This document shows, one piece after another, positions 3,001 to 21,177 of a stretch of 64,000 bases of DNA. The position numbers and the translations under genes were made by a program. This DNA is from Candidatus Omnitrophota bacterium (GTDB taxonomy: Bacteria > Omnitrophota > Omnitrophia > Omnitrophales > Aquincolibacteriaceae), in contig JAUYMS010000040.1 in NCBI GenBank assembly GCA_030698625.1, positions 21,499 to 85,498 on the forward strand. Reading direction: 5' to 3'. Below the pieces are notes generated by a model, which was not told the origin of the DNA, did not search any database, and saw only the letters and a program-made list of their open reading frames with translations. How positions within the stretch are numbered: the stretch's first letter is position 1; each line of letters opens with the position of its first letter.

Positions 3001-4629
3001 GCCCTCATCGAATTCGACCAAGCCAATGACCAATCACTTGACGATATTACTATCGAGGCGCTAGTGCGTGAGTTAAATGCACGAGGCGGGCAACATCGAT
3101 TGCTGCAAACGGCACGCACCCCCGGAGAACTCACCGAATGGGTCGAAGATATTACCACAGCGGTGATTGCGGCGGGCCGCGACAATGGCTTCAGCCCCTT
3201 TGATGATGCCTACGGCTTAGGCGAAGAAGATTTTAGAGTCTTTTGGGAGCAAATCTTTACGGGGTTACAGCGACTAAACTTGCGCACATTAATCGCGGAA
3301 ATCGTCCGCTTTGAAGCCTATACCGGCAATGAACTCCCGGATGAAGCGATCGAAGCTATTATCGCGGGCGCCAATGACCGGAACGGGCGGCTTTTCGTAC
3401 TTGAGCAAATTCTTGATGAACGGGGACTCGGACGCGCGGCGCAGAACGCCAAGCGCGATGTGAAACGGGCCCGGCTTAAGCGTCCGAACACAGACATGCG
3501 TTCCGAACTGAGGAGTGCCGTATTCGATAAGGATGAGCTCGACAGCATGTTCTTTGAAATGCAATACGGCACGGATCAGGGTTTCCTTAGTACGTACAAG
3601 CTGACAGATGCGGATGGCCTGATATTGAGACTGCTGGCTTTGCACGGAGACAAGCTCGACTGGTTTAGCGGAACTATCGAGGTTGTTCGCGGGCCTGTCA
3701 AAAAGGCGGGAGACAACATGTTCCTGCATCTTGATCTTGAGGAGATATTGCGGGAATTCACATTTCAGATAAACGGGAAGAACTCTCACTTCCTTCTGCG
3801 TCAGAGGGGTGAGAAATTTGACGTTGTTTTGAGAGAATCGCTGGTGAACTCTTTCTTGAATGGTTACGCGGCGGGTGACGTGACCGTCGTCGAGGCCTTG
3901 GCCGGCGCTCTTAATGTGGAGGGAACCGAAGCTGCCATTGCGAAGCGTCGATCAGCCCTCATTGAAAGTGCGCAATACGCCAACACCTTGTTCCGGGATC
4001 TTGTGCCGCATATGCGCGCGCGCACTCCCGAGAACCTTGGTGCCGAGCGCTACATGATCGTCTCACAAGACGTTGTGGCTAAGAATATGGGGTTTGCCCG
4101 TACGGCGCGCTTCCTGGCGGGTATGGGCTATCGCCTCTTTGTGCGGCTGAATGAGATGCCTCAGAATGAGCAGGCGATTGAGAACTTCCTTTCTATATAT
4201 CATCTCGAGGGGCTGGCGCGGGAAGACTTCATAACGCCTGTCTACGGTAACGCGGTACAAGTAACAGCGCAGATGCACCGCGCCGGTGTGCGATATCAAT
4301 TGACAGCAGAGAACCTGATCACACTAGGGTTCGATAGCGACGGACTCGCGAATGAATTTGCAGAATACAGCCACCTGGTCTTGGGCGATGAGATATTGGG
4401 CAAACGCCGCGATGCTCGTGCCGATGCACCCACGGCTTTAATCGCGGCATTAATTCTAGAGGCGCCCGTAAAAATCAGAGAACTCGGAGAGGAAATTGTT
4501 ACGGTTACGGATGCAACCCGCCGTTGGGACTTGCACCAATCCCCGGTGGCCTTCGACATGTCGGAGTTTCTGGCCGATGAGGTCGAAAACTATCATCGTT
4601 TGGCAAAGGCTCTCAGCGCTTCGGCGTAA
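1..4629 (+). CDS. Giant acidic hypothetical protein, 5'-partial (more than 1524 aa; the reading frame is open back to window position 1)
   Basis: 4.6-kb uninterrupted ORF. The track start at 55 is a TTG, and the same frame has no stop back to nt 1, so the N-terminus lies upstream of the window. D/E-rich. I see no Walker A, radical-SAM, GT or other motif. Confidence 0.55.
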   Translation: MKALQFKPAGETGKDANVLRFDEAVYDPAARANWQNLLVNLRATLKAVNENFDEQLSRTAGAEDEHYHPLRLTDARPVRVLQNFLSQYSDRINQVETARLFIFLFSRYPNVSVGRVRELLFPGGERDPIETGEVEPPSVDPAPRIPGDDTGAPAEDTGDADAERSALVRAKIPPEAVEITAALNIDQRDADAKEQMEQVVRELGAKHRVSDEYSMRVLKVKVQEFNNLVTHYIPENDGPRQVYLESHDEGNLEIAFHRDPLEGPNALVPLGFHMHRRGAGGIGTESWTFPLGDPTNLVGVHIVPEPDYNGHRNIYLHFRELTPPMMEVIREFARALAYLEKRRSIHTKDGVIQIETLYTTWHILADKTPVWNPESRRPDFTVTEGFSQALTKALKKQKDTWKRTENKNSYAKYVPEDRGLEEGKGHFEVMKDSWHDAQLFLPGLFFDFTKTESATRFGATPDSGILKWEVRKEDIRGVSLKRTDAGKERLELYFDADEFETYRIAALAGKDYDGRSYDRTKTAEHTEIDENGVITVTSDDGDEIVFIFNQSHTPRSDRRLAPVRRGGPLLTTPDELRRVLAPFEGFRAAADLLEIEPSFEYGQLKMKHRLGIPPQVGATIVAENGNVVGGELMLIQDARAGEIVGPAIHTQGFKGIRVRVDADPETGIQHKVIEFHFSGYVLPSTEDLVKIRTHAAFKQALLLKGQFREDVHYEILAGNDVEFLNTLRGNAEPRGNESVSPASQALVGDRLASEAEPAGEPREESPPSALEQRELRAVFVAGRFDEFLERENSPKLLTGQQVLKALHKFVRSTEYEIELEEAEAILKHLNDSYAAYQLETKILSAEAQIESEWAPTFTEALGGNALFTRLRTLDFSATLDGLKKFLSAFRGAGEGIIQVEDIANFEVFTGKVLSVEVINEIAAYVNTEGGFTLDAQFADDELDDFARELKETLQDGRPIRQKLLVYLDSQDEYGENVTGTWPGPNDQGTFRAYTVTQLIAALIEFDQANDQSLDDITIEALVRELNARGGQHRLLQTARTPGELTEWVEDITTAVIAAGRDNGFSPFDDAYGLGEEDFRVFWEQIFTGLQRLNLRTLIAEIVRFEAYTGNELPDEAIEAIIAGANDRNGRLFVLEQILDERGLGRAAQNAKRDVKRARLKRPNTDMRSELRSAVFDKDELDSMFFEMQYGTDQGFLSTYKLTDADGLILRLLALHGDKLDWFSGTIEVVRGPVKKAGDNMFLHLDLEEILREFTFQINGKNSHFLLRQRGEKFDVVLRESLVNSFLNGYAAGDVTVVEALAGALNVEGTEAAIAKRRSALIESAQYANTLFRDLVPHMRARTPENLGAERYMIVSQDVVAKNMGFARTARFLAGMGYRLFVRLNEMPQNEQAIENFLSIYHLEGLAREDFITPVYGNAVQVTAQMHRAGVRYQLTAENLITLGFDSDGLANEFAEYSHLVLGDEILGKRRDARADAPTALIAALILEAPVKIRELGEEIVTVTDATRRWDLHQSPVAFDMSEFLADEVENYHRLAKALSASA

Positions 4630-5479
4630 GCCTCTTGAGCAATTTCATTATTTTCCTGGGCATTTGTGTTTGAGCGGCCTTCCACTTCTTTTCCTCCGGT
4701 GTTGTCTCAACCCAAGCGACATGCCGCTGCATACCTTTATAATGCGGATTGGGGGTCCTGTTTAAGGCATAATAATAAACGGCCAATGAGTTCCTTCTCC
4801 GGCCTTCGGGACAGGTCAATGGCTGCGGGTGCCCATGGTAGGAATACGTTCCCGTATCAAAAATAACGCAGCGATTATAAATCGGCAGAATCCGTTTTTC
4901 GCACTGAGTCGCATCCCGGTTCCATAATTCAAGATGGCCGCCGTACTCTTCACGCCAATCTTTGTTCAAAAATAGAATCAAGTTATAACGCTGATGAATC
5001 ATATCGCCGCTTTTAATGGGATGCCGGTTCGTGTCGGTATGAATCATGAGCTTGCCGCCGCGGCCCGTCGAGTGAAGGCCGCAGCCATTAAAAGAGGGGT
5101 CGACCAGTAAGTCAGTAGCCCTTGTCAAAGACTTGAGGAAGCGAAGGAATGTGCTGGAAATGAGCTGGCCCATAAAATGACGCGTGAAAGGGCCGAATTT
5201 TGCATCATTCGCTACGCCCACCTTCTCAATATTCTTGTCGCCCGTATTTTCGGTCTCGCCGGGCCCCCAGAGTTTCCATTTGATTTGATTGATCGCTGGG
5301 AACTCATCGACGGCAATATCCAGTATTTCAGGAGGCATAAAGTTGTCGATAACGACATGCGGGAAGGGCTTGGCGGATGCGAATTCGTCTCGATACTTGT
5401 CCGCAACTTGCAGCAATTCTTGTGCGTCGAAATAAAAAGCCGGTATCTTTTCCGTAGGAATTGACGTGATTTCAGGCAT
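4613..5479 (-). CDS. 2OG-Fe(II) oxygenase (prolyl-4-hydroxylase-like)
   Basis: HxD...H iron triad: LMIHTDTNRH followed by the distal YSYHGHPQP. Length and layout fit the P4H/PF13640-type fold. It is convergent with ORF1 and overlaps it by 17 nt. Confidence 0.55.
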   Translation of the reverse strand: MPEITSIPTEKIPAFYFDAQELLQVADKYRDEFASAKPFPHVVIDNFMPPEILDIAVDEFPAINQIKWKLWGPGETENTGDKNIEKVGVANDAKFGPFTRHFMGQLISSTFLRFLKSLTRATDLLVDPSFNGCGLHSTGRGGKLMIHTDTNRHPIKSGDMIHQRYNLILFLNKDWREEYGGHLELWNRDATQCEKRILPIYNRCVIFDTGTYSYHGHPQPLTCPEGRRRNSLAVYYYALNRTPNPHYKGMQRHVAWVETTPEEKKWKAAQTQMPRKIMKLLKRLTPKR

Positions 5480-5499
5480 AATTCAGCTATATTACATCT

Positions 5500-6354
5500 A
5501 TGAAGATAAAGCGCAAAGCTCAAAAAATACTCAGAAACTCAGTCAAACAACTGTATAGCACCGCTTCTATTAGGCGGTCTCTCATTCGTTTTGCTGTTGC
5601 CAGGCTAAGCGGGGACTATAGAGCGCGTCTCTATGCGGAGGCATTAGAGCGCCCTCATTACGGGTATTGCGTCTACAATGCGGCACTTCTGGCTAAAAAG
5701 CTCGGGCATAAGCGGATAAGCATTTTAGAATTTGGGGTTGCCGGAGGGGAGGGGTTGCGGAGTCTGGAATATCACGCGACTCAAGTCAGCCGTCTCTTAT
5801 CCATAGAAATCGAGCTCTATGGTTTTGACACAGGCACCGGCTTACCGGACCCTGTGGATTACAGGGATCTTCCATACCACTGGCAGGAGGGGTTCTTTCG
5901 CATGGATGTGGAGAAATTAAAGGGGTCGTTGAAGCGCGCGAAACTAGTCGTCGGCGACATTGCGGATACAGTTAAAACTTTTACCGCGACTTATAACCCT
6001 GCGCCGATTGCCGCAATTATGTTCGATCTCGACTTTTATTCCTCAACGACCGCCTCTTTTGAGATATTCAACATCCCGCGATCTTACTATCTTCCCCGCG
6101 TGTTTTGCTATTTCGACGATGTTCTCGGCGGAAACGTGGAGCTTTACAACAGCTATACGGGAGTCCTTCTGGCGATCAAGGAATTCAACGAGGGCCGGGA
6201 TGAGAAAAAGATAGATCGGGCGCATTACTTGCTGGCTAAGCCGCTGCAGAGTAAATGGTATCGGCAGATCTATGTTTTTCATGATTTTGCGCACGAGTCC
6301 TATAATTCGTTCATTGGAAAGCGAAACCCGCAGCTTTCTCTAAAGCCCGTCTAA
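5500..6354 (+). CDS. TylF/MycF-family (macrocin-O-MT-like) SAM methyltransferase
   Basis: LEFGVAGGEG...YGFDTGTGLPD...FDLDFYSST...FDDV aligns with the tandem TylF-like ORFs at 22169 and 22912 (LEFGV..YGFDTFTGLPE..HIDCDLYSST..FDEY). Confidence 0.55.
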   Translation: MKIKRKAQKILRNSVKQLYSTASIRRSLIRFAVARLSGDYRARLYAEALERPHYGYCVYNAALLAKKLGHKRISILEFGVAGGEGLRSLEYHATQVSRLLSIEIELYGFDTGTGLPDPVDYRDLPYHWQEGFFRMDVEKLKGSLKRAKLVVGDIADTVKTFTATYNPAPIAAIMFDLDFYSSTTASFEIFNIPRSYYLPRVFCYFDDVLGGNVELYNSYTGVLLAIKEFNEGRDEKKIDRAHYLLAKPLQSKWYRQIYVFHDFAHESYNSFIGKRNPQLSLKPV

Positions 6355-6371
6355 TCAGCATACTAGGAGAG

Positions 6372-6391
6372 TTATCACCAGCTAGTGATAA
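6372..6391. promoter_or_regulatory. Perfect 7-bp inverted repeat TTATCAC-N6-GTGATAA upstream of gmd (candidate operator)
   Basis: ttatcac cagcta gtgataa, read directly. It lies in the 180-bp spacer upstream of the gmd start. There is no U-tract, so it does not look like a terminator. Confidence 0.25.
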
Positions 6392-6492
6392 GGCGCAATT
6401 CCTTTCATATATTCTCAGTTTTAACTGTGAATCTAACTCTCCAAAGGGGTTGTCCTCAAAGCATTTATAGCTTAAAATGGGCGCTTGCTGCA

Positions 6493-6519
6493 CATGTAGT
6501 CAAGTCGAGACTTGACCCC
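6493..6519 (+). repeat. REP-like hairpin element, copy 1 (catgtaGTCAAGTcgagACTTGACccc)
   Basis: 7-bp stem GTCAAGT/ACTTGAC with a 4-nt loop. The same 27-mer recurs at 15747, 22142 and inverted at 21080. Confidence 0.6.
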
Positions 6520-6532
6520 TTCGAAAGGATGT

Positions 6533-7633
6533 ATGAAGAAAGCGCTGATCACGGGTGTTACGGGGCAGGACGGGAGCTATCTGGCGGAATTTCTGCTCAG
6601 TATGGGCTATGAGGTTCATGGCTTAAACCGGCGGTCGAGTTCTATTAATACGCAGCGCATTGCGCATCTGATAGATGAAGAGGACACCACCAATGAGCGG
6701 TTCTTTCTTCACCACGGTGACCTCGGCGATTCAGGAAAGCTCCTCGATCTTGTCCATAATGTAAAGCCCGATGAGATTTATCATCTCGGGGCACAGAGCC
6801 ACGTCAAAGTCAGCTTTGAAATTCCGGAGTACACCCTCGATGCCAATATCCTGGGCACGGTGAGGTTGCTCGAAGCGGTACGGCGCAGCGGCCTCCAGAC
6901 AAAGATTTATCAGGCATCGTCCAGTGAAATGTTTGGAAGCACCCCGCCGCCGCAGAATGAACAAAGCCCTTTTCATCCCCGTAGTCCCTACGCCGTCTCC
7001 AAAGTTGCGGCGTACTGGATCATGGTGAACTATCGCGAAAGTTACGGCATGTTTGCCTCCAACGGAATTCTTTTTAACCATGAGTCTCCGCGCAGGGGAG
7101 AAACCTTCATCACCCGAAAGATTACCCGCGCCGTAGCCCGCATCAAAAAAGGGCTTCAAAAGAAACTCTATCTGGGAAACCTGGAAGCACGCCGCGACTG
7201 GGGCTTTGCTCCCGAGTATGTCGAAGGCATGTGGCGTATCCTGCAGTTGGACAAGCCCGATGACTTTGTCATAGGCTCCGGTGAGACGCACAGCGTGCGC
7301 GAATTCGCGGAGGCTGCCTTTTCTTACGCGGACATGGATTGGCAGGAGTACGTCGAGGTGGATCCGCGGTATTTTCGCCCGGCCGAGGTGAACAACCTCG
7401 CCACCGAAATGGCAAAGGCGCGGGACATGCTGCATTGGCAGCCGCGCATCAAGTTTCAGGATCTCGTTAAAATTATGGTCGACTACGACCTTGAGTCTCT
7501 TGGACTTACTGCCAAGGGCGAGGGCAAAAAAGTCCTCCGGAAAAAGATGCTCTGGCTTTCTGAAAAACAAAAGTTTGAAATCTTCCAAAAGGATCTCGAA
7601 GAGGCGCTCTCGACACACAAGAGAAAGTCTTAA
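6533..7633 (+). CDS. gmd: GDP-mannose 4,6-dehydratase
   Basis: [22 protein letters not shown], a YAVSK catalytic Y/K, ~366 aa. RBS aaagga sits 7 nt upstream of the ATG at 6533. The track start at 6512 is probably too far upstream. Confidence 0.9.
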
Positions 7634-7636
7634 ATT

Positions 7637-9622
7637 GTGAAGAAACTCACCATCCAAATGCTGCAACCCAACAGCGCGTACGGCAAGCAGCAGTACCTAC
7701 CTTACAGTGTTGGCATGTTGATATCCTACGTGCAGCAATATCCCGATCTCTACAAAAAGCTCGAATTCCGGCCTCTGCTTTACAAACGTGACAAGGTCGA
7801 ATCGATTGTCGGCCAGATCGGCGAGGTGGATGTGTTGTGTCTGTCGAGCTATATTTGGAATTTTCGTTTAAATATGGCAATCGCTTGTGAAGTGCGCAAG
7901 CGTCAGCCCGGTTGTCTTATTGTTGTGGGCGGACCTCATGTGCCTGACCAAATCGAAGGCTTCTTTGAGCAAAATCCCTTCCTTGATGCGGCCTGTCACC
8001 GCGAGGGGGAAAAGACGTTTTGTCATGTGCTAAAAGCCATTACCAAAGACCAACCCCTCAATAACATTGACGGCCTCTCTTATTACGACCGCGCAACCGG
8101 AGAAATTTTCAAGAACCCCATGCGGACGCGAATCGAACATCTTGACGAAATCCCGTCGCCCTATTTGACCGGAGTTTTTGACCACCTTTTCCGGCCTGAC
8201 AATGATGTCGAGTGGCAGGTGATGTGGGAAACAAACCGCGGATGCCCGTTTACGTGCACCTTTTGTGATTGGGGTTCTGCCATTGCAAGCAAGGTGCGGA
8301 AATTCGGCATGGACCGGCTGCTGGGCGAGATTCAGTGGTTTGCGGATCATCGTGTCAGCTGGGTATTCGGCTGTGACGCCAACTTTGGGATTCTCCCGAG
8401 AGATAAAGAACTTGCGGCGGCGCTAGCTGAAGCCAAAGAGAGAACCGGCTACCCCCACCAGTTCCGAGTGTGCTTCACGAAGAACAGTAACAATCGTGTT
8501 TTTGGCGTCGCCAAGATCCTGCATGACGCTCACATGTCAAAAGGGGTGTCGCTCAGTATGCAGTCTCTCGACAGCGAAACCCTGGCAAACGTGCGGCGCG
8601 ACAACATCAAGCTTGAGGTCTTCCATGAATTGCAGGCCCGTTATCTCGAAGAGGGCGTCGCTACATTCTCCGAGCTCATCATCGGGCTACCCGGCGAAAC
8701 TTATGAGAGCTTCAGAAACGGTCTGGATGTTTTACTCGACCAGGGGCAGCATAGCGGCATCAATATCTATAACTGTTCGGTCATGCCGAACGCCGAAATG
8801 GGAGATCCTGAATATCAGAAAAAATACAAATTACGAATGGTGGATCAGCCGATTTTTCAGGCGCATGCCGCCCGGCTCGCAGATGACGTCATGGTCGAAT
8901 ACGAACCGATTGTGATAGAGACTCACAGCATGACCGTCGCCGACTGGAGGCGCATCTATCACTTTGCTTGGGCGGTGCAGTGCTTTCACTTACTCGGAAG
9001 CCTTCAGGCCGTCAGTGTACTTTTAAGGAATAGGTACGGCGTGCGGTACAGCACTTTTTACGAAGCTGTTATTGAATTCGGGCAGAGAAATCCCGGCAGT
9101 GTTTTGAACAGCGAGATGGGGATACTCGACGGAGTGCTCGATAATATTCTTTCAGGCACGGGCTCAGATCAGTACCTGACGGAGTTTCTCGACATCACCT
9201 GGCCGCCGGAAGAAGCGTCCCATTTGCGTTTTGCAAAGGATATCGACGGCTTTTATCGCGAGTGCCGCCACTTTCTCGATGAGTTTCTCCTTGCGCAAAA
9301 AGTCGACATGCCTGAGGCTTTAAAAGATGATCTTATGCGCTACCAGCAAGCGACCTTAGTGCATTACGATCGCCGGAACGACGTTACTTTAAATCTTAGA
9401 TATAATCTTGATGAGTATATCAAGGGTTGCCGCAAGGGAAATTCTGTAGCCTTCGAAAAAGGAGATTTTAAATACAAAGTAACGGCCACGCATAAACTGG
9501 AGGGTGATGCCGAAAAGTTCGCCCGTGAGGTGGTTTGGTACGGAAGAAAAGGCGGGAAATTCATTTACCCCGTGGAGCGAGTTCATGCGGATGATTTTGC
9601 ATCCATTGGGAGAGGCGTGTAG
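7637..9622 (+). CDS. Cobalamin-binding radical SAM protein (class B, 661 aa)
   Basis: N-terminal B12-binding-like region (VLCLSSY...VVGGPHV), then the CxxxCxxC cluster [16 protein letters not shown] start. About 250 aa of C-terminal extension. Confidence 0.8.
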
Positions 9623-9624
9623 CC

Positions 9625-10062
9625 ATGGGCGCAGACCCAAAAACCGTGTATGTCGCGATGGCCGCGGACATTCTTCACCCCGGTCACATGAATGTGATCA
9701 AAGTTGCCCGGGAATACGGTGATATCGTAATCGGCTTACTCACGGACAAGGCGATCGAGGAATACAAACGGTCGCCATGGATGAAGTACGACGAGCGCAA
9801 AGCGGTCGTAGAAAATATTAAGGGAGTCAGCCGCATTATGGCGCAGGATTCACTGGACTATGTGGCCAACCTGCGGGCGCTCAAGCCCGACTATGTCGTG
9901 CACGGGGATGACTGGAGGAACGGCGTTCAAACTGAAACTCGGCAGAGGGTCATCGATGCGCTTAAGGAATGGGGCGGGAAACTTATCGAAACGCCCTATA
10001 CGGCGGGGATTTCTTCAACCGCCCTTATGGAAAGAATGCGAGCCCGGGCGTCGGCGCTTTAA
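9625..10062 (+). CDS. TagD-like cytidylyltransferase (HxGH nucleotidyltransferase, 145 aa)
   Basis: [10 protein letters not shown] (HxGH), GDDW and GISST resemble glycerol-3-phosphate cytidylyltransferase. The Fom1 cytidylyltransferase domain is of the same family. Confidence 0.7.
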
Positions 10063-11684
10063 TACTTCAGGGCACTCCACTTCTTTTCAGTATAGGCGCG
10101 CGTATCGTTCTTATTGAACTCGTAATTATACTTCGCAGCGAGCTCTGCAATTTCCGTTCCCCTCCACAGCCCCGGGACATCAATCAGGCCCTGTTTATAG
10201 GACATACGGAACAGATTCACTGAAGGATCAATGAACCCTTGGCGCACGCACTCCGTTAAAAGCTCCGAGCCTACGATCGGAACCGCAGCAAAGAAAGACG
10301 CACTGCTAAATTCACACTCCTGAGCAAAACGGTAGGTTGTTGCCATCTCTTCAAGGGTCTCGCCTTCATGCCCGAACATGGGCGGCATGCCGATGATGAA
10401 GTAGCCGTGCACGTGAAGACCGATCTGGCGGGCATATTTTATAAGGTGTTTAGTCTTCTCGAGATCAAGAGGCTTCTTTATGAGCTGGTCAAGGACACGC
10501 TGCACACCGCTCTCGATCGCGAACGTCAGCTGATAGGCACCGGAGGCCACCATCAAATCGAGTAGCTCTTCATCCATTCGCCAGAGCGCCGTGCCTTGCG
10601 GGGTTTGCCAAGGCAGGCCGATCTCCCGAAAAGAACGGAAAAGAATTTTCGCATGTTTCATGTCGTTGGTGATGTTGTCATCCTGAACATGGAACTCATT
10701 GATGCCGTACTGTTCCTTCAGCGCAATGATCTCTTCGACCACGTTCTCGGGACTGCGCCGCCTGAGTTTATTGCCCCAAAAATTGGTCGTGGTGCAAAAG
10801 GTGCAGTGTGCGCTGCATCCGCGGCTCGTGTAAATCTGTGCGACTCGGTCGCCCTTCGTGTAGGGAGACTGATAGGCGCGGTAATCAAAATATTTTTCCA
10901 TGTCATAAAGATGCCACGCGGGAAAGGGGATCTGATCCAATTCAGACCAATTATTCAAATCGTTCTTGGACCGTGAACTTATGAGCACGTTTTCGGAATT
11001 GATCTTGATTTCATCGCCCTGACGAAAAGCGATGCTCCCGATCTTTTCGACATCGTAGTTACCGTTAAGATGTTCGAGATATTGGAGAAACGTCAATTCC
11101 GACTCGCCCAAAAATACGACATCAAGATTAGGATCCGAGAGGCAGGCTTTGGGAAAGTAACGGGCATGAGCGCCGCCAATCGCCGTAACCACCCCGGGCT
11201 TGGCTTGTTTGGCAAGCTTCAGGAGGTTTTGGACATTGTCAGCTTGATTGCTGAAGATGCTTGAGACCCCAACGACGTCAGGGTTGAACTCGCGTATCGC
11301 CTCGATAACCCCTTCATCGTGAAGTCCGTAACTGATGAAGTTTCCCTCCGCATCAATGGGAATACCGTCATTGTAACCCTCAGCAAAAACATCAAGAATT
11401 TTGACGGTGTATTCATGATTCTCCAGCACGGCCGCGATGTAGCCGATGCCGAGGGGATAGGTGCATCTGGGGTAATCGTTTTTGAAGAGGGTCGCGGCCG
11501 GATTAAGAAGGAAGACGCGGTTAAACTTGCGGCGATGGGGGGAAGTTATAGCCTGGGGCATTGTGACCCATTTGCCGACTTTTGGGGTCCCCGGATCAAT
11601 CTCTTGCTTCCCGAGAGACCCCACCGTTAGACGTTGTTCATAACTCATGGTGGGCATTATAGGGATTCCTCGGCTCATTTCCAA
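10059..11684 (-). CDS. Cobalamin-binding radical SAM protein (541 aa)
   Basis: B12-domain-like N-terminus (VVGVSSIF...AIGGAHA), then [14 protein letters not shown] (CxxxCxxC). Its stop overlaps the cytidylyltransferase stop by 4 nt; the two genes are convergent. Confidence 0.8.
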
Positions 11685-11736
11685 GGAGTGTTTTGTAACA
11701 TATTGTTATGAAATGAGTTAGGGGTAGTTTTAAGGC

Positions 11737-11765
11737 TTTGACGGTGTCGCCTATATTCGCTATCA
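11737..11765 (+). promoter_or_regulatory. Sigma70-like promoter TTGACG-17-TATCAT for the pepM operon
   Basis: ttgacg (11737-11742), a 17-nt spacer, then tatcat (11760-11765), inside the 100-bp divergent spacer. Confidence 0.35.
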
Positions 11766-11784
11766 TAGGCACCTATTCCACCGA

Positions 11785-13500
11785 GTGCCGGAGAGGGGCT
11801 ATCGTCCTATAATGAACAGAAAAACCACCCAACTGCGCCAGCTCTTTTCGCGGGGCGGCATCATCCGCGTTATGGGAGCGCACGACGGTTTAGGTGCGCG
11901 CCTCATCGAGCGCAATGGTTTCGATGCCGTCTGGTCGAGCGGACTGGAAATCTCCACAGCGCATGCACTCCCCGACGCCAATCTCCTAACCATGACTGAG
12001 AATCTGGCTGCAGCACAAGGCATTAACGATGCCACCCATCTACCCGTCATCTGCGATTGCGATACCGGATACGGCAACTCAACCAATGTCATGCACATGG
12101 TTAAGAAATACGAAGCTGCCGGACTGGCGGCCGTCGTGATTGAAGATAAACGTTTTCCTAAAATAAACAGCTTTATTCCCGGCAGACAGGAACTTGCAGG
12201 GATCCATGAATTCGCAGGCAAACTTCAGGCGGCAAAGAGCGTTCAAAATGATCCTGATTTTATGGTCATTGCGCGCACCGAAGCGCTCATCGCCGGATGG
12301 GGAATGGATGAGGCATTGCGGCGCGCGATTGCCTACGAGCAGGCGGGCGCGGATGCGATTGTCATTCATTCCCGGTCCCGCATGCCGGACGAAGTCTATG
12401 AATTTGCTTCTAAGTGGAAGGGGTCGGTTCCCTTGATCGCCATCCCCACGATGTATCCCGATGTGACCGCAGCTCAACTTGAAGCCGCCGGTTACGGCAT
12501 GGTCATCTATGCCAATCACGGTCTACGGGCATCGATACGCGCCATGGATGAAGTCATGCGACTGATTGCGGAAACGGGATCTTTGACCGCCGTTGAGGGA
12601 AAGATCGCCGGGATGGATGAGGTTTTTGAAATTCAGCGTATGACTGCCATGCGGGAAGACGAGAAGAGATTTACGGGAAGGGAGTCGTTAAATGCTGTGA
12701 TCCCGGCGGCCGGCAATCACGCCCTCGAATCCGATTTGGGAGATGTCCTCGGAGACAAACCCGTTTGCATGCTGAATGTCGGCGCCAAAACACTCATTGA
12801 CCGGCAGACGGATCTATTGCGCTCGGCGGGAGTCAGCGACATTTGGATCGTGGGCGGTCATCAGCATGACAAAATCCGCTCCGATGGTTCTCATATCATT
12901 CACAATCCCCGATACGACACTTGTCATAATGCCTACTCACTGATGCAGGCCGAAGCGCATATGGGGACACGATGCGTCGTGGCTTATTCGGATATCATTT
13001 ATGATCGCCAAATTCTTAATCATCTGCTCATGAGTCCGCATGACATTACACTCGTTATGGATCGTGCGTATCAGACGCTTCCGGCGCGAGATAAAAAACA
13101 TGATTTGGTGATCGCAGAAAATTCATCCGTGGGGTTTGAGTCGCGGCGGCTCGACGCCAGTCTCTTCCTTCCGGTGCGCCGTATCGGAAAGGAACTCGAC
13201 AAGGCTCGGGCCAATTATGAATTCATCGGACTGGCCTTATTTCAGGGGCAGGGCATTCATGAACTGCGAGCGGCCTGGCGTGACGCACTATCGAAATTCC
13301 GGGACAAGCAGTTTAACGAGGCCCCCTCGGCCGAAAAGGCTAGTTTGCCGGACCTGATTCAGTATCTCATTGAACGCGGTGCCGGCGTGTATGGCATGCA
13401 GATTGAGCACGGCTGGTCCGAGATTCAATCGAAAGAGGACTACCGCCGCGTAGACTCTTATTTTCAGCCGTCTTCGGCTCAGCCGTCTCAAGTCGTATGA
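11785..13500 (+). CDS. pepM: Phosphoenolpyruvate phosphomutase fused to a C-terminal nucleotidyltransferase domain
   Basis: PepM signature VVIEDKRFPKINSF (EDKxxxxxNS) and the isocitrate-lyase/PEP-mutase fold motifs in aa 1-290. Aa ~300-571 has VIPAAG...GDKP...VGG, an NTP-transferase-like fold. An alternative start is the ATG at 11812 (MNRKTTQLRQLF). Confidence 0.85.
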   Translation: MPERGYRPIMNRKTTQLRQLFSRGGIIRVMGAHDGLGARLIERNGFDAVWSSGLEISTAHALPDANLLTMTENLAAAQGINDATHLPVICDCDTGYGNSTNVMHMVKKYEAAGLAAVVIEDKRFPKINSFIPGRQELAGIHEFAGKLQAAKSVQNDPDFMVIARTEALIAGWGMDEALRRAIAYEQAGADAIVIHSRSRMPDEVYEFASKWKGSVPLIAIPTMYPDVTAAQLEAAGYGMVIYANHGLRASIRAMDEVMRLIAETGSLTAVEGKIAGMDEVFEIQRMTAMREDEKRFTGRESLNAVIPAAGNHALESDLGDVLGDKPVCMLNVGAKTLIDRQTDLLRSAGVSDIWIVGGHQHDKIRSDGSHIIHNPRYDTCHNAYSLMQAEAHMGTRCVVAYSDIIYDRQILNHLLMSPHDITLVMDRAYQTLPARDKKHDLVIAENSSVGFESRRLDASLFLPVRRIGKELDKARANYEFIGLALFQGQGIHELRAAWRDALSKFRDKQFNEAPSAEKASLPDLIQYLIERGAGVYGMQIEHGWSEIQSKEDYRRVDSYFQPSSAQPSQVV

Positions 13501-14606
13501 TCGAATCCGGCACGTTCGTGCAACAACTCAAGAATGAAGGTTTTCGTTTTTTTACGGGCGTGCCTTGTTCCTTCTTTCAATCTGCGATCAACGCTGTGGT
13601 TGACGACAAGTCTTTGAAGTATGTCACCGTACCAAACGAAGGCGCGGCCTTGGCTGCGGCATCGGGCGCCATACTTGCCGGAGAACCCGCTGTAGTCCTA
13701 ATTCAGAACTCCGGTTTTGGCAATTTGATCAACCCGCTGACATCGCTGAATATGATTTATGGGCTGGGTGTTCTTATATTTATCAGCGGGCGCGCCTATG
13801 GCGTCGCCGATGAACCGCAACACGAAATTATCGGTAAGTCTATGGCAGGAATGCTCGACGCGATGGGTGTTGCTTTCGAAGACCTGCCTTCCGAGCCCGA
13901 GGCGCTACGGTCTGCTTTGGGACGTGCGCACCTGTGGATCCGGAACGAAAAGCAGCCCTTTGTTTTCTTTGTGCGCAAGGACACCCTTTTGGAATACGCC
14001 GGGCCATCCGGCAAAGACGTCTACCCGCTAAAACGAATTGATGCCATAAAGATCATTGCGGAATCGATAGGGGACAATGACTATGTCGTTGCGACCACGG
14101 GCAAGCCGTCACGCGAACTCTTCAAGATCAAGGATAGGGTCCGCAATTTTTACATGCAGGGTTCCATGGGGCATGCGGCGGCAATTGGTTTGGGGGCTGC
14201 ACTCAGTCGTCCGGATGAGAGGATTATCGTCCTGGACGGTGACGGCGCCATTTTGATGCACCTCGGTATCCTCTCTTCGATTGGGCATTACCGGCCAAAG
14301 AACTTCTATCATATTGTTCTCGACAACGAGGCTTACGAATCAACGGGCGGCCAAGATACGACCTCTGCCTCCTCCGATTTGTGCGCTGTGGCGCATGCAT
14401 GCGGCTATGTTTGGACTAAAGAAACGTCTACAGCAGATGAGTTAAAGCGCAGCCTTGAAGAGCTCAAAGGAATTGAAGGGCCGTGTTTTTTAAGAGTTAA
14501 GATCAACCGTATTGCTACACCCGATGTCCCGCGCATATCGGGAAAGCACAGTTCACGTGATATCGCCTCGCATTTCTCCGAAGAACTGGCCAGGGGGCGC
14601 ACTTGA
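13497..14606 (+). CDS. ppd: Phosphonopyruvate decarboxylase (ThDP-dependent)
   Basis: 369 aa. ThDP motif LDGDGAILMHLG...NEAYESTGGQ. ATGA overlap with pepM. pepM-ppd synteny is canonical. Confidence 0.8.
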   Translation: MIESGTFVQQLKNEGFRFFTGVPCSFFQSAINAVVDDKSLKYVTVPNEGAALAAASGAILAGEPAVVLIQNSGFGNLINPLTSLNMIYGLGVLIFISGRAYGVADEPQHEIIGKSMAGMLDAMGVAFEDLPSEPEALRSALGRAHLWIRNEKQPFVFFVRKDTLLEYAGPSGKDVYPLKRIDAIKIIAESIGDNDYVVATTGKPSRELFKIKDRVRNFYMQGSMGHAAAIGLGAALSRPDERIIVLDGDGAILMHLGILSSIGHYRPKNFYHIVLDNEAYESTGGQDTTSASSDLCAVAHACGYVWTKETSTADELKRSLEELKGIEGPCFLRVKINRIATPDVPRISGKHSSRDIASHFSEELARGRT

Positions 14607-15739
14607 GTTGCGCTTACTGGAATCCTACGCGCCGTCTCATAGAAGAAGGTGCCCTCGACAAACTGGCTGAAGAACTATCAGCTTCCGGTGCCGCAAAGGT
14701 ATTGGTCGTGCTCGGCGAAAAATCATTTCGTAAGTCGATTCGCTACACAAAACTGCGCGATACGTTGGAACACTTTTCCCTTGTCGAATCTGAGCCCGTC
14801 GTCAAAGACCCTTCACTGGTATTCGCACAGTCATTTGCCGAAAAGTATCGCGGCAAGGCTATTGATAGCGTCGTGGCAATTGGCGGGGGCAGCGTCATGG
14901 ATATGGCGAAACTGACGGCGCTCCTGCTCAATCAGCCGGATGACACGTGGAACACTTTTTGGCGTGATCCGGTGGTACCGATTGAGTTTCCAAATGCGTC
15001 ACTCCCGCTCGTCGCGGTTCCTACAACGGCGGGCACGGGGAGCGAAGTCACTCAATACGCCTCTTTTGAGGATCACCAGCATCAAAAGATGAGCTTTGCT
15101 CACCCTTATCTTTTCCCAAAGCTTGCGCTCGTGGATCCTGAATTGGCCGTTTCGATGCCGCCTGCGATTACGGCCTCGACAGGATTTGACGCACTATCGC
15201 AAGCGATCGAGGCCTATTGGTCCATCCATCATATGCCTTCCTCAGACACCCATGCACTGCGGGCTATCCCGTTGGTTTTAGAACAGCTTCAGCGTGCCGT
15301 CGAAAAACCTGCCGATAGGGATGCTCGTTTCGCCATGGCAATTGCAGGCAACGAGGGGGGCCTAGCCATCGCACAGACACGGACGACAGCAGTTCATTCG
15401 GTTTCTTATCCCATGACGACGATATTTCACGTGCCGCATGGCCACGCTTGCGCCTTGACGCTTGCCTCATTCGTACGGTTCAACCAGGATGCGATTGAGC
15501 ACGAGCGAGCCGCCGCACTTTGGAGAGCTCTCGGGGCGGAGAACGCTGAAATGGCCGCTAAGCACATTGAGGGCCTTATGGATAATGTCGGACTCGAGCG
15601 CCGACTGAGTCAAGTAGGCATTGATGAGGAAGGACTGGAGTCCATTGTAAAATATGGGTTTAGACCGGATCGTGTAAAGAATAACCCAAGAGAACTCAAT
15701 GCCTCTCAATTAAGAACAATGCTTGTGGAAATTCTTTGA
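14603..15739 (+). CDS. Iron-containing alcohol dehydrogenase (phosphonoacetaldehyde reductase candidate, FomC/PhpC-like)
   Basis: Fe-ADH family: GGGSVMDMAKL. Positioned directly after ppd. TTG start overlaps the ppd stop. Confidence 0.7.
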   Translation: MSCAYWNPTRRLIEEGALDKLAEELSASGAAKVLVVLGEKSFRKSIRYTKLRDTLEHFSLVESEPVVKDPSLVFAQSFAEKYRGKAIDSVVAIGGGSVMDMAKLTALLLNQPDDTWNTFWRDPVVPIEFPNASLPLVAVPTTAGTGSEVTQYASFEDHQHQKMSFAHPYLFPKLALVDPELAVSMPPAITASTGFDALSQAIEAYWSIHHMPSSDTHALRAIPLVLEQLQRAVEKPADRDARFAMAIAGNEGGLAIAQTRTTAVHSVSYPMTTIFHVPHGHACALTLASFVRFNQDAIEHERAAALWRALGAENAEMAAKHIEGLMDNVGLERRLSQVGIDEEGLESIVKYGFRPDRVKNNPRELNASQLRTMLVEIL

Positions 15740-17388: not shown

Positions 17389-18345
17389 GTGTTCCTGATT
17401 GATTCTTACATCCGAGACCGCCTTGTAAGAAAGGTGCGTGCAAAGAAAGAAAAAATCGCCCGTTTGGGAACTCCCTATACAGAGAATCCCAAAGTTTCAG
17501 CGGTTGTCACCTCGTACAATCACAGGGCCAACATCAAGCCGATTCTCGAAGCTTACAGAGCCGCAGACCTTGAGGAATTGATCGTTTGCGAAGATGGTTC
17601 CCTCGACGGCTCCCGCGACGAATGGCTCAAGCATCTGCTTAGGCCGAATGATTTCCTGATTGTCTCCAACGAACTGAATGAACTTCGGATCTACAATCGC
17701 GCCATCAGTCTCGCTCGCGGAGAAATAGTGATCGTCAATCAGGACGACGATATTCCCCCCCAAGACGCAAGTTGGATTCGTGATGCGGTACGCCTTTTCG
17801 ACAAGTATCCGCGGTTGGCGATTTTGGGTGCGTTGGAGGGCGCTCAACAGCCAATCTTTACCCTCGACAATTACTACCGCGTCAAATCTCTGGCTGAGCG
17901 TCTCGGGCAGGCAAAATTCAGAATACCCCGTAAAGAGATACAACATCGCGATCCCGAACTCGGAGTCGGTTTTATGTTCATCGATGTCGTCAATAACGGG
18001 CCGCTGATCTTCCGCAGACAGGCTTATCTCGAACTCGGAGGCCTGGATACGTCTCGTAGTAAGGCAGGGGAATCCATGATGTTTATGGATTACGATCTTT
18101 GTTATCGTGCTTGGCTTGCCGGTTGGCAGGTGGGGCTCTATGAGCACGCTCCGTTTGTGACCAATGCGGGCCAGCGAGCCTCGGTTCTTTTTGCCCATGG
18201 GGATCGTAAGAAGCGCGGGAAGGAAACTCGCGAATACCTGAATCAAGCTTATTCACACGTCTATGAGGATGTCGGGAGCCGGGCACGTCGGTTGAACGAG
18301 GAGTTTCTCACCTTGGCTGATCACAAAGAAACGGTGAATAGTTGA
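17389..18345 (+). CDS. GT-A fold glycosyltransferase (GT2-like)
   Basis: VVTSYNH...CEDGSLDGS...NQDDD. Paralog of the ORF at 28811. GTG start. Confidence 0.6.
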   Translation: MFLIDSYIRDRLVRKVRAKKEKIARLGTPYTENPKVSAVVTSYNHRANIKPILEAYRAADLEELIVCEDGSLDGSRDEWLKHLLRPNDFLIVSNELNELRIYNRAISLARGEIVIVNQDDDIPPQDASWIRDAVRLFDKYPRLAILGALEGAQQPIFTLDNYYRVKSLAERLGQAKFRIPRKEIQHRDPELGVGFMFIDVVNNGPLIFRRQAYLELGGLDTSRSKAGESMMFMDYDLCYRAWLAGWQVGLYEHAPFVTNAGQRASVLFAHGDRKKRGKETREYLNQAYSHVYEDVGSRARRLNEEFLTLADHKETVNS

Positions 18346-20427: not shown

Positions 20428-20613
20428 ATATCATGCCTGCCATATCACATTTCCCGGTGGGCGCCATGAACAATTCTTGAATTCAACCATATTCCCAGGA
20501 TAGGCCCTCTTGATAAACCGTAGGGCGCGGCGAACATCGCCTTGCGACGTGTTGTCGAAATAAGCCTTACCGTCACAAGCAACGATTCTTATATTCGCAC
20601 TCATGTAAGTCGT

Positions 20614-20964: not shown

Positions 20965-21059
20965 CAGTGATTTAATCCTTATATCTCATATTATGAATAA
21001 CGCGCGTGATAGCGCAGATTCTAATCAATTATGTCATTTTAGCCATCATTTAGTTGCCG

Positions 21060-21106: not shown

Positions 21107-21177
21107 TTGTTTCCTGCGTATCATGATATCTTCGTAACATCATTCCACAACGTAACATAACCTCTATTCACCAGCTC

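Follow-up and report, generated by a model that had tools for sequence, protein, structure and literature searches.

In the fosfomycin pathway of Streptomyces wedmorensis and S. fradiae, the radical-SAM enzyme Fom3 combines a B12-binding with a radical-SAM domain and carries a CX3CX2C motif, and its C2-methylation of cytidylyl-2-hydroxyethylphosphonate (CMP-HEP) has been demonstrated. The cytidylyltransferase (CyTase) of this pathway is the N-terminal domain of the PEP mutase PepM and contains HxGH and GISST motifs (Fom1; PDB 5X3D). TokK and ThnK, the sequential methylases of carbapenem C6, and CysS, the iterative methylase of cystobactamid, share a three-domain fold and an SSN cluster that also contains Swb9 and PctJ. 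Characterised members of this clade place one to several successive methyl groups on an sp3 carbon of a substrate with a long polar handle, which is pantetheine for TokK and CysS; TokK, ThnK, and CysS methylate a just-installed methyl group, and R280 of TokK binds the substrate carboxylate. In Pnt phosphonyl-tailoring, the cytidylyltransferase PntC and LicD-like transferases serve cell-surface phosphonates, whereby the known examples activate 2-aminoethylphosphonate (AEP) (Rice et al., 2019, PMC6697681).

The DNA analyzed here, referred to as the window, comprises 64,000 nt from an Omnitrophota metagenome-assembled genome (MAG). Because it holds a Wzm/Wzt pair, whose Wzt carries a C-terminal glycan-binding domain, the entire window is predicted to be one large ABC-transporter-dependent (Wzm/Wzt-type) polysaccharide locus. 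It further contains GT2/GT8/GT1-like enzymes, SDR epimerases, a GDP-mannose 4,6-dehydratase (GMD), a UDP-glucose dehydrogenase, four sulfotransferases, many methyltransferases, LicD, and Wzy_C. The relevant features are as follows:

4613–5479, minus strand: 2OG-Fe(II) oxygenase, 2 kb upstream of the TokK-type gene
6512–7633, plus strand: GMD, directly upstream of the TokK-type gene (GDP_Man_Dehyd, 448 bits)
7637–9622, plus strand: TokK-type gene, 661 aa, GTG start
9625–10062, plus strand: cytidylyltransferase gene, 145 aa, ATG start
10059–11684, minus strand: predicted fom3 orthologue, ORF of 541 aa, TTG start
10059–10062: TTAA, in which the stops of the two convergent genes (for the cytidylyltransferase and Fom3) overlap, read directly from the sequence
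11649–11784: spacer separating the divergent genes fom3 and pepM, one promoter-like site per strand (consensus matches only)
11785–13500, plus strand: PEP mutase with a fused MobA/LicC-like, PntC-type nucleotidyltransferase domain at its C-terminus (PEP_mutase, 191 bits; NTP_transf_3, 34 bits)
13497–14606, plus strand: phosphonopyruvate decarboxylase, Ppd (TIGR03297, 360.8 bits, above the cutoff of 312.5)
14603–15739, plus strand: Fe-dependent alcohol dehydrogenase (Fe-ADH), candidate FomC/PhpC-type phosphonoacetaldehyde reductase, which would make 2-hydroxyethylphosphonate (HEP)
15839–17377, plus strand: third cobalamin radical-SAM protein, 512 aa
33547–34284, plus strand: LicD-family phosphotransferase (Pfam LicD, E 5e-13, matching just the N-terminal portion of the profile)
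59621–61838, plus strand: Wzm/Wzt ABC exporter pair (ABC2_membrane; ABC_tran and Wzt_C, 77.7 bits)

An ORF check showed that the segment from 7637 to 11684 is filled by three real genes with the coordinates described before. The first-pass annotation had seen two class-B radical-SAM proteins (661 and 541 aa) bracketing a cytidylyltransferase, which is borne out by the ORFs, Pfam domains, CX3CX2C motifs, and homology. Since identical proteins have been called in an NCBI Omnitrophota MAG (MDP3920768.1) and a Logan assembly and homologues number in the thousands, the ORFs are not due to chance. Relative to the 541-aa ORF, the public gene calls are shorter at the N-terminus by 12 codons at NCBI (529 aa) and by 2 codons in Logan (539 aa), and the protein starts to resemble Fom3 from residue 19; its probable start is at 11648, giving 529 aa. 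For the 661-aa gene, the long GTG start is favoured by homologue conservation and by a confident N-terminal strand (residues 4–12) in the structure model. The convergent genes do end on a shared TTAA, as had been described, with the plus-strand stop TAA at 10060–10062 and the minus-strand stop as the reverse complement of TTA at 10059–10061; 2 bases belong to both stop codons, and the overlap of the two ORFs measures 4 nt. Because at least 15 further neighbouring gene pairs of the window overlap by 4 nt, the arrangement is unremarkable and reflects the general gene packing of the locus, without functional meaning; a terminator-like site was not found at this junction. The stop of the 661-aa gene lies 2 nt ahead of the cytidylyltransferase start, and therefore both genes are probably co-transcribed. 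The promoter-like sites between fom3 and pepM are TTGGAA-17-TATAAT on the minus strand (11684–11656) and TTGACG-17-TATCAT on the plus strand (11738–11766).

By its sequence, the 541-aa minus-strand protein is assigned as a true Fom3 orthologue, i.e., a predicted cobalamin radical-SAM cytidylyl-HEP C2-methyltransferase. It aligns end to end with Fom3 of S. wedmorensis (Q56184; 64% identity and 80% positives over 535 residues), falls inside the clade of bacterial Fom3 proteins in an NJ tree, and shows the Fom3 domain architecture (B12-binding, 81.6 bits; Radical_SAM, 60.3 bits) with the CX3CX2C motif as CSAHCTFC at residue 290. A motif scan revealed the DxHxxG motif in neither the 541-aa nor the 661-aa protein. 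The phosphonate is almost certainly C-methylated by the 541-aa enzyme. The 512-aa protein encoded at 15839 was rejected as a Fom3 orthologue, as it is only 23% identical to Fom3; the earlier view, in which this protein was the Fom3-like one and the other two were “extra,” is thus reversed. Its homologues at 62–75% identity come from Omnitrophota, Elusimicrobia, and CPR. In three loci (L120–L122) the family lies within polysaccharide clusters that contain no phosphonate genes, and it is directly followed by GT2 in L120, L122, and the window and by a CDP-alcohol transferase in L121, so that the protein belongs to a conserved glycan-cluster family.

The 145-aa protein had been described as a TagD-like cytidylyltransferase. 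The enzyme class stands, but the TagD type gives way to the Fom1 type, since residues 6–136 match the Fom1 CyTase domain (5X3D) with an E value of 1.7e-54 compared to 1e-7 for TagD. It is approximately 64% identical to Fom1 residues 6–132, shares the Fom1 motifs as HPGH and TAGISST, and is predicted to be a stand-alone Fom1-type HEP cytidylyltransferase. That its gene adjoins fom3 would make sense because the CyTase product is the Fom3 substrate. In the fosfomycin system the CyTase is fused to PepM, whereas here it is a separate gene convergent with fom3, and PepM has a C-terminal PntC-type domain in place of the Fom1 CyTase domain. Among 30 genome loci with Fom3 relatives, the Fom1-type CyTase-PepM fusion is found beside the Fom3 relative in 22 (Streptomyces, five Alphaproteobacteria, and 11 Nano/Woesearchaeota or unclassified MAGs), nearly all of which also contain Fom2- and FomC-type genes; one additional locus (Nitrospinaceae) has a PepM-NTP transferase fusion instead.

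The other fosfomycin partner genes PepM, Ppd, and Fe-ADH are present here as well. PepM contains EDKRFPKINS at residue 120 (EDKxxxxxNS) and reaches 314 bits with TIGR02320, slightly below the cutoff of 319.55. The best NCBIfam match of the Fe-ADH is TIGR03405 (Phn_Fe-ADH; 238 bits, under the cutoff of 423.7), and it is 29% identical to S. wedmorensis FomC over the full length. Together, the segment genes and the divergent pepM-ppd-Fe-ADH operon are predicted to encode the fosfomycin pathway as far as CMP-2-hydroxypropylphosphonate (CMP-HPP). Unlike the Fom3 system, they lie in an Omnitrophota polysaccharide locus without HppE (Fom4), FomD, FomA, or FomB: tblastn with S. wedmorensis Fom4, FomA, FomB, and FomD, and a metagenomic HppE-like cupin and FomA-like kinase gave no match in the 64 kb at E <= 0.01, although the same queries do pick up their counterparts in L123 and the Streptomyces loci. 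With the Pnt systems the locus shares the PepM-NTP_transf_3 fusion, the predicted activation of a phosphonate with CMP, and genes for glycosyltransferases and a LicD-family protein. It differs in that an AEP transaminase is absent from the window, the head group would be HEP that receives its C-methyl in the CMP-bound state, and a second, Fom1-type cytidylyltransferase would be used. The PntC-type domain plays no part in the scheme proposed below, which speaks against it. The LicD-family protein is a candidate for phosphonyl transfer from the CMP-phosphonate to a glycan, by analogy with LicD-like enzymes beside phosphonate tailoring genes (PMC6697681). Its distance of 22 kb from the phosphonate genes and its partial profile match also count against the scheme.

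The 661-aa protein had been placed with GenK, Fom3, and PhpK; it belongs instead with TokK, ThnK, and CysS, and no examined relative lies near phosphonate genes. It matches TokK (7kdx) with an E value of 1e-116 over residues 18–616 (approximately 32–38% identity) and CysS with 5e-58. Its AF2 model (pLDDT 91.2) yielded Foldseek TM scores of 0.87–0.89 to TokK, 0.72–0.77 to CysS, and at most 0.5 to OxsB or TsrM. Pfam recognizes Radical_SAM (39.8 bits), whereas B12-binding (30.4 bits) falls slightly below the gathering score of 32.1; the cobalamin domain is confirmed, at the level of homology and modelling, by the full-length similarity and the model match to the cobalamin-bound TokK crystal structure. 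All signature motifs of TokK/ThnK/CysS are present, namely the Trp under the cobalamin (W74), Cys-X3-Cys-X2-Cys-X-Trp (C203/C207/C210, W212), D247-A248-N249, and R277 as the equivalent of TokK R280. Across 30 homologues, no variation was seen at W74, the three Cys, W212, D247, and N249, and A248 and R277 are kept in 90% or more. The NCBIfam KedN5 subfamily model matches with its first ~390 positions only (284 bits, cutoff 700). The protein is therefore classified as a putative TokK/ThnK/CysS-type methylase with Cbl Rossmann, radical-SAM, and TokK-type C-terminal domains, and both segment proteins fall into methylating class B radical-SAM clades.

Unlike TokK, ThnK, and CysS, the 661-aa protein is encoded without nearby carbapenem, NRPS, or carrier-protein genes, and its relatives occur in surface-polysaccharide clusters. 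All seven closest homologue loci (54–65% identity) are polysaccharide clusters without PepM, with genes including Wzx, DegT, SDRs, GTs, class I methyltransferases, and GMD. Another 80 loci of more remote relatives, 43 of which exceed 8 kb, contained neither PepM nor CyTase nor a Fom3 orthologue; the neighbours that they share most often are SDR sugar enzymes. Since these neighbourhoods are sugar and polysaccharide clusters, a sugar-linked substrate is plausible and most likely over the phosphonate; possibly it is a GDP-mannose-derived 6-deoxy sugar. The suggestion that phosphonate or nucleotide sugars are methylated thus survives, apart from the clade grouping of the 661-aa enzyme. GMD is the sole gene that the window has in common with the closest TokK-like loci (L002 and L116 encode a version with 60% identity), and a conserved 229–268-aa partner protein encoded upstream of the closest homologues is absent from the window, so that the substrate may differ from theirs.

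Overall, we favour, with a probability of about 60%, a fom-type CMP-HPP branch for glycan decoration alongside a separate sugar-directed TokK-type methylase. PepM(-NTP transferase), Ppd, and Fe-ADH would convert PEP via phosphonopyruvate and phosphonoacetaldehyde to HEP, which the 145-aa enzyme would couple with CTP to CMP-HEP. The Fom3 orthologue would then methylate C2 to yield CMP-HPP, by means of a [4Fe-4S]/SAM-derived 5'-deoxyadenosyl radical and methylcobalamin. Because HppE, FomD, FomA, and FomB are absent and glycosyltransferases, LicD, and Wzm/Wzt surround the genes, CMP-HPP would serve as the activated donor for a glycan esterified with 2-hydroxypropylphosphonate, and not for fosfomycin; we infer the glycan as acceptor, as well as the substrates and the number of methylations. 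The 661-aa enzyme would C-methylate a nucleotide-sugar or glycan-linked moiety, not the phosphonate.

It could also be that the 661-aa enzyme acts on the phosphonate branch, where further radical methylations after Fom3 would extend or branch the side chain, or C1 would be methylated, leading for example to 2-hydroxybutyl- or 2-hydroxy-isobutyl-phosphonate esters. The probable co-transcription with the CyTase gene is one argument that ties the TokK-type gene to this branch and speaks against the favoured reading. In addition, TokK, ThnK, and CysS act on freshly installed methyl groups, a CMP handle would be a fair analogue of pantetheine, and R277 makes an anionic substrate plausible; however, this residue is kept across the glycan-associated family and is hence not phosphonate-specific. 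A Nitrospinaceae MAG (L011) does carry a distant KedN5-family radical-SAM gene (29% identity) in an operon with pepM and fom3, but its product lacks the Cys-loop Trp and represents a different subfamily. As PepM, Ppd plus CyTase, or Fom3 occur near none of the 7 closest and 80 more distant homologues, and a close TokK-like gene in none of the 30 Fom3 loci, we consider this unlikely.

Quite unlikely, too, is a free small molecule (HPP or an oxidized fosfomycin-like derivative), for which the roles of HppE and FomD would fall to an oxidase and a hydrolase not homologous to them, and the glycan genes nearby would have no connection with the pathway. The nearest Fom3 relatives (65–68% identity; P0123, P0132/L123) do lie in compact fosfomycin-like clusters that encode, besides a FomA-like kinase and an exporter of the MFS or ABC type, either an HppE-like cupin or a PhyH dioxygenase, and all five alphaproteobacterial Fom3 loci contain a PhyH dioxygenase. 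In the window, a PhyH homologue is missing like the HppE and Fom proteins, and neither a resistance kinase nor a small-molecule exporter is adjacent. Moreover, the phosphonate operon passes directly into genes for GT2, UDP-glucose dehydrogenase, and sulfotransferases, where neighbouring genes either overlap by 4 nt or stand no more than 100 nt apart, and the PntC-type domain on PepM is typical of cell-surface phosphonate tailoring (PMC6697681). Release or modification of HPP by a non-homologous hydrolase or oxidase is possible, the 2OG-Fe(II) oxygenase at 4613–5479 being at hand, and counts against the favoured reading. Very improbable is that one or both proteins are cobalamin radical-SAM enzymes that catalyse something other than C-methylation, whether cyclization (BchE-like), rearrangement (HpnJ/OxsB-like), dehydration (AprD4-like), or P-methylation (PhpK/Sden_1168-like). 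No model reaches its curated NCBIfam cutoff for either protein, and the 541-aa protein scores best with the Sden_1168 P-methyltransferase family, whose phosphonate context it shares. This nearly full-length match of 297 bits is about half of the cutoff (575), and HpnJ (135 bits, cutoff 578) and BchE (119 bits; 47 bits for the 661-aa protein; cutoff 481) score far lower than required, so that neither enzyme is BchE-like. The 541-aa protein is far closer to Fom3, the demonstrated CMP-HEP C2-methylating enzyme, and phosphinate-forming genes are absent; the 661-aa protein matches TokK across three domains (TM 0.89 compared to <=0.5 for OxsB/TsrM) and bears the motifs that define its methylase cluster.

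Fom3 modules elsewhere adjoin CDP-alcohol phosphatidyltransferase genes (8 loci) or Wzx flippase genes (5 loci), which supports CMP-HPP as a transfer donor. On the favoured reading, the surface of this Omnitrophota cell is probably decorated with a methylated phosphonate.

The ORF list and the sequence itself, read directly, both confirmed that the three genes reported by the first-pass annotation at 7637-11684 are real:

7637-9622, plus strand: gene for a 661-aa cobalamin radical-SAM protein
9625-10062, plus strand: gene for a 145-aa cytidylyltransferase (CyTase)
10059-11684, minus strand: gene for a 541-aa cobalamin radical-SAM protein

The convergent pair was also seen to end, as described, on a shared TTAA at 10059-10062, from which the plus-strand gene takes its TAA stop (10060-10062) and the minus-strand gene the complement of 10059-10061. 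Since 4-nt overlaps occur in at least 15 further gene pairs of the window, and thus are the norm for the locus, and since no terminator-like site was found at the TTAA junction, the shared stop reflects tight gene packing, and a functional role for it was rejected. Both large proteins contain B12-binding and Radical_SAM Pfam domains together with a CX3CX2C motif, and the DxHxxG motif is absent from both. Proteins identical to these are present in an NCBI MAG labelled "Candidatus Omnitrophota bacterium". Scanning the window for Rfam families and tRNAs gave no match.

The 541-aa protein was identified as an orthologue of Fom3. In a BLASTP comparison it aligned end to end with the characterised cytidylyl-2-hydroxyethylphosphonate methyltransferase Fom3 of S. 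wedmorensis (UniProt Q56184), with 64% identity and 80% positives over 535 aligned residues, whereby its residues 19-541 match the whole 534-aa enzyme. Q56184 is also contained in its best homologue cluster (P0126, 64% identity), and in a neighbour-joining tree calculated without bootstrap the protein falls inside the bacterial Fom3 clade, next to Streptomyces enzymes and metagenomic fosfomycin-like clusters. PF02310 and PF04055 score 81.6 and 60.3 bits, respectively, and the CX3CX2C motif of the radical-SAM core reads CSAHCTFC (residues 290-297). The gene shows the Fom3-type association, with the CyTase gene adjoining and genes for PEP mutase (PepM), phosphonopyruvate decarboxylase (Ppd), and an Fe-alcohol dehydrogenase (Fe-ADH) divergently adjacent. 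From this similarity, the protein is predicted to methylate C2 of cytidylyl-2-hydroxyethylphosphonate (CMP-HEP) with MeCbl and SAM. The Fom3-like candidate had previously been seen in a third radical-SAM gene (15839-17377, plus strand, 512 aa). However, its product is only 23% identical to Fom3 and its family sits in non-phosphonate glycan clusters, so that this candidate was rejected; the 661-aa protein is 21% identical to Fom3. The first-pass annotation was thus right in regarding both proteins at 7637-11684 as methylase-type class B enzymes, one of them very probably acting on a phosphonate, but it assigned Fom3 to the wrong gene and missed the specific identities. Confidence in the family assignments given here is high.

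The two proteins were placed relative to other class B enzymes by NCBIfam model scores and PDB comparisons, whereby NCBIfam holds no Fom3 model. The best NCBIfam match of the 541-aa protein is the Sden_1168 P-methylase model, at about half its cutoff. Against the Sden_1168 and PhpK models (cutoffs 575 and 600 bits) the 541-aa protein scored 296.7 and 57.2 bits and the 661-aa protein 70.3 and 72.1 bits, which places neither in these families. The BchE-like clades, which had been raised as the non-methylating option, are contradicted by the TIGR02026 scores (cutoff 481 bits), which are 119.4 bits for the 541-aa protein and 47 for the 661-aa protein, and the 541-aa protein also stays far under the cutoff of the HpnJ model. 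For the 661-aa protein, the KedN5 model NF033712 gave 284.5 bits compared to a curated cutoff of 700, with a match to positions 16-388 of 624 only; by these scores it is related to the KedN5 subfamily without being a member by the NCBI definition.

The closest characterised relative of the 661-aa protein in these comparisons is TokK. HMMER aligned its residues 18-616 with residues 20-630 of TokK (E 1e-116; about 32-38% identity), compared to E 5e-58 for CysS. Its AlphaFold (AF2) model (pLDDT 91.2) superimposes over the full length on TokK (7kdx/7kdy) with TM 0.87-0.89 and on CysS with TM 0.72-0.77, whereas OxsB and TsrM reach TM values of at most 0.5. The protein has the three-domain architecture with the TokK-type C-terminal domain and carries the residues that define the TokK/ThnK/CysS/Swb9/PctJ group, namely W74, the Trp below the cobalamin, the Cys-X3-Cys-X2-Cys-X-Trp motif C203/C207/C210-D-W212 ending at W212, and D247-A248-N249. 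In addition, R277 is the equivalent of the substrate-binding Arg280 of TokK. The ThnK and TokK systems include a carbapenam synthetase, a CarC-like enzyme, and a pantetheinyl substrate, whereas the window is without such genes; the label "2-(S)-pantetheinyl-carbapenam methyltransferase" that JGI gives to one homologue was transferred automatically.

The CyTase located between the two radical-SAM genes had been called TagD-like. It is a cytidylyltransferase, but not of the TagD type (1e-7 only), as it aligns with the Fom1 cytidylyltransferase domain (PDB 5X3D) at E 1.7e-54 and about 64% identity and is thus a Fom1-type CyTase for 2-hydroxyethylphosphonate (HEP). CMP-HEP, the substrate required by Fom3, is made by the Fom1 CyTase domain, and because the product of the one enzyme is the substrate of the other, the position of the CyTase gene beside fom3 makes functional sense. 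Three further genes lie divergent from fom3:

PEP mutase, with an EDKxxxxxNS motif and a C-terminal NTP_transf_3 (PntC-type) domain
phosphonopyruvate decarboxylase, scoring above the NCBIfam cutoff
iron-dependent alcohol dehydrogenase of the FomC/PhpC type

The spacer at 11649-11784 contains one promoter-like site per strand, both being consensus matches only. Together, the window genes would encode the route from PEP via phosphonopyruvate, phosphonoacetaldehyde, HEP, and CMP-HEP to cytidylyl-2-hydroxypropylphosphonate (CMP-HPP).

A cryptic fosfomycin cluster was searched for with Fom4/HppE, FomA, FomB, and FomD from the recovered S. wedmorensis fom cluster (L018) and, in addition, with two proteins of a divergent metagenomic cluster (L123), namely an HppE-like cupin and a FomA-like kinase. 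No tblastn match to HppE/Fom4, FomA, FomB, or FomD was obtained in the 64-kb window at E <= 0.01, and no cupin or AA_kinase Pfam match occurs among the 50 window ORFs scanned. In the control loci, all of the Fom4, FomA, FomB, FomD, and L123 queries detected their genes. As the finishing genes are without a match in the window with both Streptomyces and divergent metagenomic queries, a cryptic fosfomycin cluster was rejected. The window also holds none of the CDP-alcohol phosphatidyltransferase or PhyH dioxygenase genes that stand beside other Fom3 modules.

The whole window is instead a single ABC-transporter-dependent polysaccharide locus, which contains:

sugar enzymes: GDP-mannose 4,6-dehydratase (GMD), several SDR epimerases, UDP-glucose dehydrogenase
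glycosyltransferases: many of GT2, GT8, and GT1-like type
transfer and export: LicD-family transferase, Wzy_C, Wzm/Wzt with a Wzt_C domain

Tailoring genes are unusually dense, with four sulfotransferases and about a dozen SAM-methyltransferase domains, including TylF-like and Methyltransf_24 types and two large Methyltransf_23 plus MptE-like fusions (19693-20427, 42453-44422, 61840-62670; 22169-25483, 34236-38957, 47339-52572). This density and the Wzt_C domain suggest a polymer that bears many methyl and sulfate groups and a terminal cap by which it is recognised for export. At the upstream edge of the locus lies a 1524-aa ORF (55-4629, plus strand) with no Pfam match at E <= 0.001, on which a 2OG-Fe(II) oxygenase gene converges (4613-5479, minus strand), and a 284-aa ORF at 5500-6354 has no family match. 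In the middle of the locus, a gene for a protein with an IS200-like Y1 transposase domain and a DnaA C-terminal helix-turn-helix (21178-22164, plus strand) follows a 750-bp gap (20428-21177) in the 2-kb bin of lowest GC content in the window (0.479).

A PepM-NTP_transf_3 fusion together with LicD-like transferases is a signature of cell-surface phosphonate tailoring (PMC6697681). The window contains such Pnt-type tailoring genes, namely the PepM-NTP_transf_3 fusion and a LicD-family gene (33547-34284), along with glycosyltransferases and Wzm/Wzt. On the basis of this signature, transfer onto the glycan is the best-supported fate of CMP-HPP, and we estimate a probability of about 0.55-0.6 that the glycan is decorated with 2-hydroxypropylphosphonate (HPP). 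It is therefore probable that the early fosfomycin pathway has been re-used here for glycan decoration, beside two orphan glycan-associated families of cobalamin radical-SAM enzymes. No system linking HPP with a polysaccharide, or Omnitrophota with phosphonates, was found in the searchable literature, whose coverage is incomplete, so that an earlier description is possible.

For Fom3 relatives, one genome per species was scanned, which yielded 30 loci. A Fom1-type CyTase-PepM stands beside the Fom3 relative in 22 of them, and nearly all of these 22 also have Fom2 and FomC; one locus beyond these 22 (L011, Nitrospinaceae) carries a PepM-NTP transferase fusion as in the window. HppE, FomA, FomB, and FomD were confined to the six Streptomyces loci. 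The five alphaproteobacterial loci all have a PhyH dioxygenase and often a CDP-alcohol phosphatidyltransferase, and archaeal loci carry CDP-alcohol phosphatidyltransferase and Wzx genes. The occurrence of epoxidase-free Fom3 modules beside such genes is consistent with several lineages using CMP-HPP, or one of its derivatives, as a head group for transfer. The searchable literature, incompletely covered, yielded no account of such a head group, although an earlier one may exist.

Several of these loci have features of their own. In L011 (Nitrospinaceae UBA7883, 61-11575) an apparent operon encodes a HAD hydrolase, NeuB, a KedN5-family protein, a GT-like protein, an NTP transferase, the PepM-NTP transferase, Ppd, Fe-ADH, and Fom3. 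Its KedN5-family cobalamin radical-SAM protein (670 aa, 29% identical to that of the window) is without the Cys-loop Trp, and the locus is a second, independent pairing of Fom3 with the TokK superfamily in a nonulosonic-acid-like context. The alphaproteobacterial loci (L013 from Neorhizobium sp. SHOUNA12A, 5649-15199, and L012, L014-L016) are fom3-fom1-fom2 modules without HppE, some of which also contain the CDP-alcohol phosphatidyltransferase and an EPSP-synthase/MurA-family gene; their product could be an HPP head group in oxidised form, or else it could resemble fosfomycin and be accompanied by a resistant target copy. L123 (JGI metagenome contig Ga0209062_1002119, 10001-16308) is a compact fosfomycin-like cluster with a Fom3 68% identical to that of the window, an HppE-like cupin 35% identical to Fom4, a 625-aa extended Fom1-like CyTase-PepM fusion, a FomA-like kinase, and a thymidylate-kinase-like protein. 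It directly adjoins a set of VirB/Trb genes for type IV secretion, pointing to a mobile cluster of the fosfomycin type beyond Streptomyces and Pseudomonas. Many genomes of DPANN archaea, here MAGs of Nanoarchaeota and Woesearchaeota (L019-L029), have Fom3 (41-47% identity), Fom1, Fom2, and FomC in one block, often near a CDP-alcohol phosphatidyltransferase, a Wzx flippase, or extra radical-SAM genes, which implies HPP-type phosphonates in archaeal envelopes.

More than 120 environmental sequences resemble the TokK-type enzyme more closely than TokK does. The seven loci inspected around its closest homologues (54-65% identity) are all polysaccharide clusters, and none contains a phosphonate gene. 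Four of them share the order AsnB-like, unknown membrane protein, TokK-like, Wzx, DegT, SDR, followed by a GT2 gene in the three whose sequence reaches that far, and in two (L002 and L116) a GMD 60% identical to that of the window lies further downstream. In others of the seven, a class I methyltransferase or SDR gene is located immediately upstream of the TokK-like gene. A metagenome scan with a TokK-like alignment listed matches of 25-43% identity, with no closer relatives among them; in none of the at least 80 loci with such more distant relatives, among the matches listed, was PepM, the CyTase, or a Fom3 orthologue present, and the commonest shared neighbours were SDR sugar enzymes. The unknown membrane protein that is always directly upstream of the four closest homologues is conserved and 229-268 aa long; it carries a membrane anchor at its N-terminus, matches neither Pfam nor NCBIfam families, and is encoded at:

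25-750, locus L001
9319-10008, locus L002
2716-3522, locus L116
9186-9947, locus L117

Neither phmmer nor a six-frame profile search found a counterpart in the window, so that it was rejected as a conserved companion of the window's TokK-type enzyme.

The family of the third radical-SAM gene is tightly conserved (62-75% identity) in Omnitrophota, Elusimicrobia, and CPR bacteria. All three loci inspected (L120-L122) are glycan clusters in which phosphonate genes are absent; in two of the three the gene is directly followed by a GT2 gene, as in the window (17389-18345, plus strand), and in two a CDP-alcohol transferase is nearby. Relatives of both families occur together in two of the at least 80 TokK-like loci. 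These are unrelated metagenome contigs, on which the genes lie within a few kb of each other (L037, 2647-4119 and 7188-9116; L044, 697-2049 and 2697-4391), with 59% and 36% identity to the third radical-SAM protein and 38% and 36% to the TokK-type protein, respectively. The two orphan families may share the same kind of glycan pathway.

Given the sugar and polysaccharide contexts of its relatives, which lack phosphonate genes, the 661-aa enzyme most likely C-methylates, by radical chemistry and possibly more than once, a substrate that is a nucleotide sugar or is linked to a glycan, with a GDP-mannose-derived deoxysugar as the leading candidate. On this comparison a sugar is the favoured substrate, while work on the phosphonate branch is rather unlikely. 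The latter would agree with the position of the gene, just 2 nt from that of the HEP CyTase, and with the habit of the TokK/ThnK/CysS clade of extending freshly installed methyl groups. Fom3 would then place the first methyl group on CMP-HEP, iterative TokK-type extension or branching would follow, and the third, glycan-family enzyme might add further C-methyls, so that the surface glycan would be capped with a 2-hydroxyalkylphosphonate exceeding in length every natural phosphonate head group known. This full sequence of steps we consider improbable; if true, it would constitute a radical "alkyl-building" line on a C-P compound.

The TokK-type and third-gene families, which have thousands of relatives each (E <= 1e-20) and whose inspected neighbourhoods are all sugar or polysaccharide loci, offer concrete candidate loci for radical-SAM methylation of glycans. 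The searched literature yielded no case of a bacterial surface glycan that is methylated by a cobalamin radical-SAM enzyme. The stand-alone CyTase and the Fom3 orthologue form a defined pair with known substrates and are testable as such. Until now, work on Fom3 has been limited to its role in antibiotic biosynthesis. The Fom1-Fom2-FomC-Fom3 module without the epoxidase is found in the window, in Alphaproteobacteria, in Nitrospinota, and in many Nano- and Woesearchaeota, where it adjoins glycan or CDP-alcohol-transferase genes, and HPP is thus predicted to be a natural cell-surface or lipid head group. If this is true, HPP would join the few structural phosphonates (AEP, HEP, methylphosphonate) that are relevant to the environmental phosphorus cycle.
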